DNA of 64,000 bases from Saccostrea echinata (lineage: Eukaryota). Of the stretch, positions 45,024 through 63,447 are shown piece after piece. A program made the translations under genes and the position numbers. The notes below the pieces were generated by a model. That model did no database searches, was not told the DNA's origin, and was given only the letters and a program-made list of their open reading frames with translations. The stretch's first letter is position 1. The number at the start of each line of letters is the position of its first letter. The DNA is taken from NCBI RefSeq assembly GCF_033153115.1, contig NW_026889768.1:3596001-3660000 (forward strand), read 5' to 3'.

Positions 45024-48000
45024 TCCTGATGTCCAAAATACAAACACTATCATAATCATTTTCTAGTTGAAAAAAAAAACATATGGTTCTCCCTTTTTCT
45101 CCTTGATCATGTTGATGAATAAAGTATGGATATTTTCTGCAAAAAAAAAACAACTCCAATACAAGGAAATTATTTGTTTTTCTGGGACTTAACCAAGATA
45201 GGAGTGTTAAGTGTTCACTGTCACAGTGTAAGACTTACTGAGACAGGGGACTTGGTGTTCACTGACAGACTTACTGAGACAGGAGACTTGGTGTTCACTG
45301 ACAGACTTACTGAGACAGGAGACTTGGTGTTTACTGAAAGACTTACTGAGTCAGGAGACTTGGTGTTCACTGTCAAACAGACTTACCGAGACAGGAGACT
45401 TGGTGTTCACTGACAGACTTACTGAGACAGGAGACTTGGTGTTCACTGACAGACTTTCTGAGACAGGCGACTTGGTGTTTATTGACAGACTTACTGAGAC
45501 AGGCGACTTGGTGTTCACTGACAGACTTACTGAGACAGGAGACTTGGTGTTCACTGACAGACTTACTGAGGCAGGAGACTTGGTGTTTACTGAAAGACTT
45601 ACTGAGACAGGAGACTTGTGTTCACTGACAGACTTACTGAGATAGGAGACTTGGTGTTCACTGACAGACCTACTGAGACAGGGGACTTGGTGTTCATTGA
45701 CAGACTTACTGAGACAGGAGACTTGTGTTCACTGACAGACTTACTGAGAAAAGGAGACTTGGTGTTCACTGACAGACTTACTGAGACAGGAGACTTGGTG
45801 TTCACTGACAGACTTACTGAGACAGGAGACTTGGTGTTCACTGACAGACCTACTGAGACAGGGGACTTGGTGTTCATTGACAGACTTACTGAGACAGGAG
45901 ACTTGTGTTCACTGACAGACTTACTGAGATATGGAGACTTGTAATCGCGGTGGAGATTCGGCTGGGCTAGATATTTGGTCTGACGCCCACCGAATCTCGG
46001 GACAGTTCTTCATAATTCATGTCTGGGAATTCAGCCCCAACTTCGGCCGGCTACATCAAGAATTATTCACCTAGGCGACACTGTCATTTGCTTCAATTAA
46101 GTCATTTAGTTGTTTAATTAACTCTCTGTCACTATTACTTTCACATTGCTTACCGTCTAGGCATGTAAATCCCACCATAAAAACATTCACTAAAATCTCC
46201 GTTCAAAATATGGCTCCCCTGACGTAATTGTTTATCTCCGCACACTAAATAGTTCCTCTATGGTCTGTTTTCATTTCTATGAAAAATACTTAAAAGCCAC
46301 AGTAGAGATTCAGTATCACATAAAAGAAAACAGACTGTAGGAACTCTTTAGTGCGAGGAGATAAACAATTACGTCAGGGGAGCCATATTTTGAATGGAGC
46401 TTTTAGTGAATGTTTTTATGGTGGGATTTACATACCTAAATGACTTAATTGAAGCGAACGACAGTGTCGCCTAGGTGAATAATTCTTGATATAGCCGGCC
46501 GAAGTTGGGGCTGAATTCCCAGACATGAATTATGAAGGACTGTCCCGAGATTCGGTGGGCGTCAGACCAAATATCTAGCCCAGCCGAATCTCTACCAAGA
46601 TTAGGAGACTTGGTGTTCACTGACAAACTTACTGAGACAGGAGACTTGGTGATCACTGTCACACAGCTGACAATCCCATGCTATCGGTATTCCATCTATA
46701 CTGGGGCACCTCTCACACGTATGGCTGGTCTGGTTGGCATAGTAACCAAGGTCACATTGAACTGTCAACAGAAAAAAATGGCAATTTGAAATCAAAACCA
46801 AAAATATCCCTATTACTGTTAGTACTCTCAAGGTTTTAAAAAGCAAGCCTTACCACATTTCAAACTGGTCTCATTTAACACACTATCTGCAGCACATGTA
46901 ATTGCAGTTTTGGTGGCATTAAGTGAGATATTCACATTCCCACAGACCGGGTCATTCACTGAAGATCCATTCTGGTATTTGTTCACTATTTGTTGTGTGA
47001 AGTTATCCATGCACTCAAAGAACTTCTGTCTGTGAACTTTCAGCTGGGTCACGACCAGAGTAAGCACCAGAGAATCCTGTAAAGGGACGTAACTCCTCAT
47101 AATAATAGTCATACTATATAATATACTGCAGCGTATACATCTACCAGTGGTAAGACATGAAATTCATTTCCAAGAAATACAAACACTGGAACTAATTGAT
47201 TTTTTTTCAGTGAATTATCAAGTTTGAGACATCAGTGTTATATCATGTATTTCAATAAAAGAAGAAACACTTAGTGATCCAAGAATACAATAAATTACAA
47301 AAGAGAAATTTTAAATAAATGTATAATTATTGAACATTTAATTTGTAATAATAGCAATTTCCACAAAATGCACAAAATATCAAACAATTTAGGCATTAAC
47401 AATGATGGTGTTTTATGAGGGCCATTCAAAAATTATGCAGACTTGTTGCACAGAAAAAAAATATTTTACAACATAATCAAGCAAAAAGTCTTACATAATA
47501 TAAAAGAATCTATACTTATATGGCCCTAAAAATTTCATATCAAAATCCTGAAATTGATAGAAATTTTGGGTGGTTTAACAGGAGATATATGAAGTCATCG
47601 TGCAGTAAAATCTTCGATGTCACAGGCATTATAAAAAAATGTGAGCTTTCATTTATCAACCTTTCCAATGGTGTTTTGATACTGTACAGTTTTGGTTATC
47701 TTTTCCACTCAGCATAAACATCTATATACCAATTCTTATCCTGCTTAAAATCTTTAAAACTAAAATAGTAAAGTTTAGTTTGTTTTAAAACCCCAAAACT
47801 GCTGATATTTCTGAAATATTCTGCGACATCGGTCAGTCTCAATCAGACCAGATTTAGGGTATGAAATTTTCCTGGAAAACCAACTAGCCAAGGGGCTACT
47901 GATCAGTAAAAAATTACTAGTCCAAACCTCAAACTAACTAGCCCAACTATTTTTTATGCAAAAGGAAAACTTAACAAGTTAAAGTTTCAAAGGCTTTGGT

Positions 48001-63447: not shown

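Follow-up and report, generated by a model that had tools for sequence, protein, structure and literature searches.

What is the repeated cysteine-rich module in the ectodomain of an oyster surface receptor, and how did it come to stand there in several copies? The question is raised by a 64,000-nucleotide (nt) stretch of the Saccostrea echinata genome (contig NW_026889768.1, positions 3,596,001 to 3,660,000; hereafter, the window), in which an original prediction had noticed five divergent units, here U1 to U5, in a receptor gene resembling Drosophila Uninflatable (Uif). The whole gene is read on the minus strand; feature coordinates are positions within the window, and items upstream of it are given in extended coordinates. 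We found that U1 to U5 and a further unit upstream, U0, are diverged copies of one six-cysteine module in a spliced oyster Uninflatable-like receptor gene.

The exon chain of the receptor is spliced and expressed. All 15 peptide motifs quoted in the original prediction lie at their expected minus-strand places, from 63430 to 54176, and a chain of 17 exons with AG/GT ends, which begins at a Sushi exon upstream and reaches 46633, reads as a single open frame of 2,486 residues. The region is present in five listed runs, none recorded as RNA; the evidence for splicing is contig joints that skip GT-AG introns, in contigs from two studies (X4 and X5 are one sample). These contigs join the chain and so place the exons in the receptor mRNA. 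A 3,216-nt contig from run X2 agrees with the exon arithmetic (62863 is its position 502, and 50263 its position 3216), and nine exon joints are listed between 55671 and 46633, that from 50263 to 47076 being seen in X4 and X5 only. The X2 contig also has depth within exon 63447-63227, whose joint is assigned from position rather than listed, and loose contig ends at 46633 match exon 41895 (41866-41895). Contig depth was higher downstream of U5, a difference we set aside because depth cannot rank parts of one gene.

Each of U1 to U5 contains exactly six cysteines (Cys), with successive gaps of 19-29, 34-47, 22-28, 15-18, and 12-13; the last range replaces the C-x(11-13)-C first given. As predicted, U1, U2, U4, and U5 are split by a phase-0 intron before the same strand, 18-21 residues ahead of Cys3, and the exon chain confirms that U3 is intronless and fused to part of U2 within a 736-nt exon. 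The estimate of at least five units in an array needs adjusting in two ways: the sixth copy, U0, lies upstream of the window (extended coordinates 69093-68543), and U5 is not in tandem with U1 to U4, from which it is set apart by a furin-motif exon and three HYR-type exons. Each unit carries one to eight N-glycosylation sequons.

Pairwise similarity among the units is weak, with 2 of 21 pairs clearly above shuffles (U3-U5, z 6.6; U0-U1, z 3.7). We scored each held-out unit with a Cys-anchored profile of the other units, against 300 shuffles that kept the Cys. U5 (16.7 bits) and U2 (14.2 bits) were reached by none of the 300, U1 (16.0 bits) by one, U0 (6.8 bits) and U4 (11.1 bits) by two each, and U3 (4.9 bits) by eight, so that the shared pattern goes beyond chance. 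A test of the spacing pattern (0-1 of 20,000 shuffles match) was not counted, as it is circular: the pattern was derived from the same units. Cys-anchored alignments were used for the profiles; MAFFT was unreliable on units and half-units, and a multi-unit alignment for folding was given up. Among finer features, the one that held was the alternating strand 1 pattern (12 of 12 units); helical hydrophobic moments were mixed. A second pre-ephrin module, "U6," was rejected as a family member (3.5 bits, reached by 46 and 16 of 300 shuffles, the latter in the Cys-kept test). When the X2, X4, and X5 contigs are compared with the genome, 12 differences fall in the 233-nt first exon of U2 and 0-1 in most downstream exons; a polymorphic patch covers the helix 1-strand 2 region (61690-61784 and 62510-62599).

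The full-length orthologue, identified by cluster look-up, is C. virginica LOC111120118 isoform X7 (XP_078317512.1; 3,988 amino acids [aa]; "uncharacterized"), itself a predicted model, which by tblastn is colinear with this gene down to the transmembrane exon and tail. Unit identity between the two is 64, 54, 55, 45, 37, 57, and 76% for U0 to U6, respectively, and all six U3 Cys are kept in 8 of 8 full-length orthologous open reading frames (ORFs); three short fragments span Cys2-4 only. The module is absent from Pfam: no family covers the units in the exons, orthologues, or full-length orthologue scanned, and none of the 17 families in the orthologue lies over them, in keeping with the original description of the module as unrecognised. 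A search of 1.84 billion sequences returned six matches, of which only P0001 and P0002 are relatives; P0003 to P0006 were rejected on reading their sequences as chance repeat proteins. Searches of the oyster's own genome with four unit exons gave no second array and one chance match (E value, 0.885), and no longer relatives were found in protein searches, which were limited to 2,000 residues and are weak evidence. Profile and sequence searches lose sensitivity at the divergence level of these units. No paper on the module was found in the article texts searched.

The genome holds at least two Uninflatable-like genes. The paralogue (G000:C4, about 575-645 kb, minus strand), found with the Sushi exon upstream of U6, has the same domain order, and between its Sushi and first ephrin-like exons lie two exons, predicted from genome sequence, with phases 1-0-1 and six Cys (gaps 22/54/26/17/16; intron 23 residues ahead of Cys3). 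This module, which was outside the training set, scored 15.4 bits, a value reached by 0 of 1,000 plain and 0 of 1,000 Cys-kept shuffles (best Cys-kept, 15.3). No further unit was found in the paralogue region, where none other of 1,167 pieces in 120 kb scored above 6.1; the paralogue has a single copy, versus six here. U5 occupies the position equivalent to this single module. Because the 1-0-1 phase pattern recurs and is also that of the single copy retained in the paralogue, the exon-pair duplication first suggested is supported, and the array likely arose by duplicating the exon pair that stands singly before the ephrin-like repeats in the paralogue. On the simplest reading of the sequences, U5 would be ancestral and U0 to U4 would be duplicates of its exon pair, with the intron lost in U3; we infer the direction. 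The array is seen in oyster-like sequences only, and none was detected in the paralogue; within the reduced sensitivity of these searches, this is consistent with a lineage-specific array. The idea that the module itself is unprecedented in this receptor class is not supported, given the single copy in the paralogue and the SEA label in vertebrate SVEP1 discussed below. The paralogue also has a U6-like module (exons near 579315-578561).

Three cassette micro-exons, missed by the original prediction, lie inside the phase-0 introns (Table 1). The C. virginica X7 inserts in U2 and U5 sit exactly at these introns, and all three cassettes fall in the strand 2-strand 3 loop of their unit. The U5 cassette is Lys/Arg-rich in both species, and R-x-K/R-R occurs in none of the three. 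The U2 pair is skipped in X2 and the U5 cassette in X4/X5, inclusion not being seen in the contigs of this species; X2 contigs break at both exon borders flanking the U5 cassette, as a splice bubble would cause. Elsewhere in the U2 intron lies a 21-nt AG...GT segment (61341-61321, minus strand) whose splice signals are good and whose last codon, in the intron's phase, is a stop. Its inclusion would shorten the protein or lead to decay, and no transcript was seen to support it.

The receptor around the units has a lectin-LDLa-CUBx3-Sushi-HYR-ephrin-like-EGF-LamG-transmembrane architecture, established by the Pfam matches of the orthologue and colinear tblastn, the C-type lectin being assigned by resemblance, without a Pfam row. 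Signal-peptide-like, lectin-like, LDLa, three CUB, Sushi, and EGF exons lie upstream of the window, as does a single 3,528-nt exon (extended coordinates 67693-64166) that encodes 1,175 aa (47% Thr; 62% Thr/Ser/Pro) and is missing from isoform X7; it is probably an optional mucin exon. The signal-peptide-like first exon, transmembrane exon, mucin exon, and sequons place the units outside the cell in a glycosylated surface protein. Between U4 and U5, exon 51586-51305 matches HYR (E value, 0.0016), and the first HYR-type domain is assigned by resemblance only. The orthologue contains just three R-x-K/R-R motifs, two directly after U4 (both RKKR, in the linker matching 52786-52965) and one in the U6 loop, and the same three places carry them here.

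Two known receptors invite comparison. The published domain list by which we compared Uif (PMC3340373) gives a C-type lectin, three CUB, Sushi, HYR, many EGF, and two FA58C domains in a single-pass receptor, and a passage of PMC12867482 mentions a presumed cleavage site. The oyster protein shares this set but differs in having no FA58C among the 17 Pfam families of the orthologue and in adding the U0-U4 array and the optional 1,175-aa mucin exon. Vertebrate SVEP1 (polydom) is described in PMC13722417 with Sushi, HYR, ephrin-receptor-like, EGF, and pentraxin/LamG domains, a set similar to that of the oyster protein; its AlphaFold model includes an SEA module, and it has a furin site close to residue 997. 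SVEP1 differs in being secreted and in having a VWA domain. Its SEA module presumably lies just before the ephrin-like repeats.

The fold predicted for the units, at low confidence, is β1-α1-β2-β3-α2-β4 followed by a two-strand Cys5-Cys6 hairpin. Two different methods, applied to different units, each ranked SEA first, a convergent but weak support for the SEA/ferredoxin-like fold originally proposed: the structural match is weak and unrelated ferredoxin folds tie with SEA. Like SEA domains (PF01390; MUC1/MUC16, the TMPRSS SEA domain 2e7v, and the Notch heterodimerisation domain), the units are predicted to follow this strand-helix order, and they have an extracellular position beside a Thr-rich mucin segment and an intron in the strand 2-3 loop. 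They differ in their six conserved Cys and extra hairpin, in intron phase (phase 0, versus phase 2 in oyster SEA genes), and in lacking a profile match: PF01390 matched nothing in the exons, orthologues, or full-length orthologue, and the gene is not among the genome's 24 SEA matches at E values up to 10. The G-S-V/I autoproteolysis motif was found at strand 3 in 0 of 12 units (U0 to U5 in two species); two matches to the pattern in U1 are both in helix 2. A structure model of U3 alone was too poor for a fold search, searching PDB sequences with the U3 profile returned a single irrelevant match (E value, 0.3), and an Atlas search with U3 alone gave no usable match. On balance, we consider an SEA-like identity probable. 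By topology, disulfides Cys1-Cys4 and Cys2-Cys3 would staple the helices, and Cys5-Cys6 would close the hairpin.

These features suggest a mechanism in which furin would cut after U4, at the two conserved furin-type motifs. The released part would comprise the lectin/CUB/Sushi head together with U0, U1 to U4, and, where present, the 1,175-aa Thr-rich segment, and would be a mucus or apical-matrix glycoprotein; HYR-U5-ephrin-EGF-LamG-U6 and the transmembrane helix would remain on the cell. The units would serve as rigid, N-glycosylated, protease-resistant spacers, their helices disulfide-stapled in place of self-cleavage, and the micro-exons may tune loop length or protease access. We regard the shed-spacer role of the array as an even proposition, and the explanation as a whole, in which duplicated SEA-like, disulfide-locked modules act as spacers in a furin-released, mucin-like N-terminal piece, stands at much the same balance. 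It is doubtful, though conceivable, that these modules represent a family of SEA-like domains that has no name yet, is locked by disulfides, was ancestrally present in Uninflatable-like receptors, and was amplified six-fold in oysters. In such a family, conserved micro-exons would reprogram the cleavage loop, and splicing would decide which parts of a giant mucin-receptor undergo cleavage, are shed, or bind partners.

Other readings of the units account for part of these data. The original prediction offered ligand binding as one function, and the array could be a ligand- or glycan-binding (e.g., chitin-binding) battery whose aromatic Cys5-Cys6 hairpins replace the FA58C domains that the Uif list includes (PMC3340373) and the orthologue lacks. 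Aromatic residues do occur in the U1-U4 hairpins, CBM_14 appeared at an E value of 1.3 in 2 of 9 alignment members, and orthologous units diverge fast (37-64% identity, versus 76% for U6). However, CBM_14 appeared in 0 of 6 isolated hairpin regions at E values up to 10, the paralogue hairpin leans to an EGF-like family (E value, 0.18) and so looks generic, and besides Cys no surface residue is common to all units. This analysis found no evidence of ligand binding by the units, and we consider the battery unlikely.

We think it somewhat less likely still that the units work as switches sensitive to force or proteases, in the manner of the Notch regulatory region, with pulling or cassette inclusion uncovering a cleavage site in the strand 2-3 loop. 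SEA-like domains adjoining structured neighbors act as proteolytic switches, according to PMC6586460, and the position of the cassettes, the basic U5 cassette, and the RRKR in the U6 loop would suit such a role. Yet those switches are juxtamembrane and the membrane is over 1,400 residues away from U0 to U5, the cassettes lack R-x-K/R-R, the proposed disulfides would keep a cut unit together, and U0 to U4 lie beyond the furin motifs. About as improbable is a separate small alpha/beta family unrelated to SEA, ferredoxin-like by convergence or of another fold. The searches made found no sequence link to SEA, and the intron phase and the tie with unrelated ferredoxin folds point the same way; against it stand the agreement of two methods on SEA, the extracellular setting beside a mucin segment, and the SEA module labeled in the similar domain set of SVEP1 (PMC13722417).

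The analysis provides annotation for about 900 residues, until now unannotated, of a giant oyster surface protein, defines a module missing from Pfam that recurs in a paralogue, and suggests how duplication of an exon pair turned an Uninflatable-like receptor into a membrane mucin. Should the predicted fold be right, the units would form a cysteine-locked, non-self-cleaving branch of the SEA-like class, with a loop under splice control that can be tested. This is a domain-evolution result rather than a new kind of system.

Table 1. Receptor gene features in the window
Feature	Position	Strand	Content and support
Unit 1, first exon	63227..63447	-	Strand 1, Cys1, helix, Cys2, strand 2; phase 1 to 0; contigs X1, X2
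Unit 1, second exon	62443..62863	-	Strand 3, Cys3-6; phase 0 to 1; X2 record 502-922; unit ends near 62630, then short Pro/Thr/Ser linker
Unit 2, first exon	61642..61874	-	Phase 1 to 0; X2 record 923-1155
U2 cassette micro-exon 1	59581..59619	-	39 nt, phase 0-0; AG/GT ends; best of 139 candidates versus C. virginica insert
U2 cassette micro-exon 2	59070..59090	-	21 nt, phase 0-0; best of 139 candidates, score 25 versus 9 for next
736-nt exon	55671..56406	-	Unit 2 second half (to about 56165) and whole intronless unit 3; contigs
Unit 4, first exon	55393..55583	-	Phase 1 to 0; contig joints
Unit 4, second exon	54169..54400	-	Phase 0 to 1; contig joints
Basic linker exon	52786..52965	-	Two furin-type motifs, RGRR at 52957 and RQKR at 52864
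HYR-type exons between U4 and U5	51305..52546 (52546-52368, 51860-51791, 51586-51305)	-	Joints in contigs
Unit 5, first exon	50263..50453	-	Phase 1 to 0; contig joints
U5 cassette exon	49598..49669	-	72 nt, phase 0-0; Lys/Arg-rich; best of 131 candidates versus C. virginica insert
Unit 5, second exon	46854..47076	-	Phase 0 to 1; directly upstream of first ephrin-receptor-like repeats
First Ephrin_rec_like (GCC2/GCC3) run	41404..46761 (46761-46633, 41895-41734, 41565-41404)	-	E value 1.2e-12 for 41563-41405
U6, second pre-ephrin module	26316..26868 (exons 26868-26610, 26491-26316)	-	Different Cys pattern; RRKR in internal loop
Transmembrane-helix exon	23468..23558	-	Receptor transmembrane helix

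Several further elements lie in the window. The intron after exon 46633 contains a 39-bp tandem repeat array (45232-45930) followed by an element of about 650 bp with long inverted ends (45942-46590), and an intron in the EGF region holds a 219-aa ORF (38688-39344, plus strand), by resemblance a retroelement remnant, that has no Pfam match. The last coding exon (21172-20795, minus strand, including what follows) is succeeded in the 3' region by two near-identical tandem copies, the middle copy having an internal stop. At about 2800-12300 on the minus strand, three or more small two-exon genes lie in tandem; they have signal-peptide-like starts and a resemblance to secreted phospholipase A2 (PF09056; best E value, 1.1e-6).
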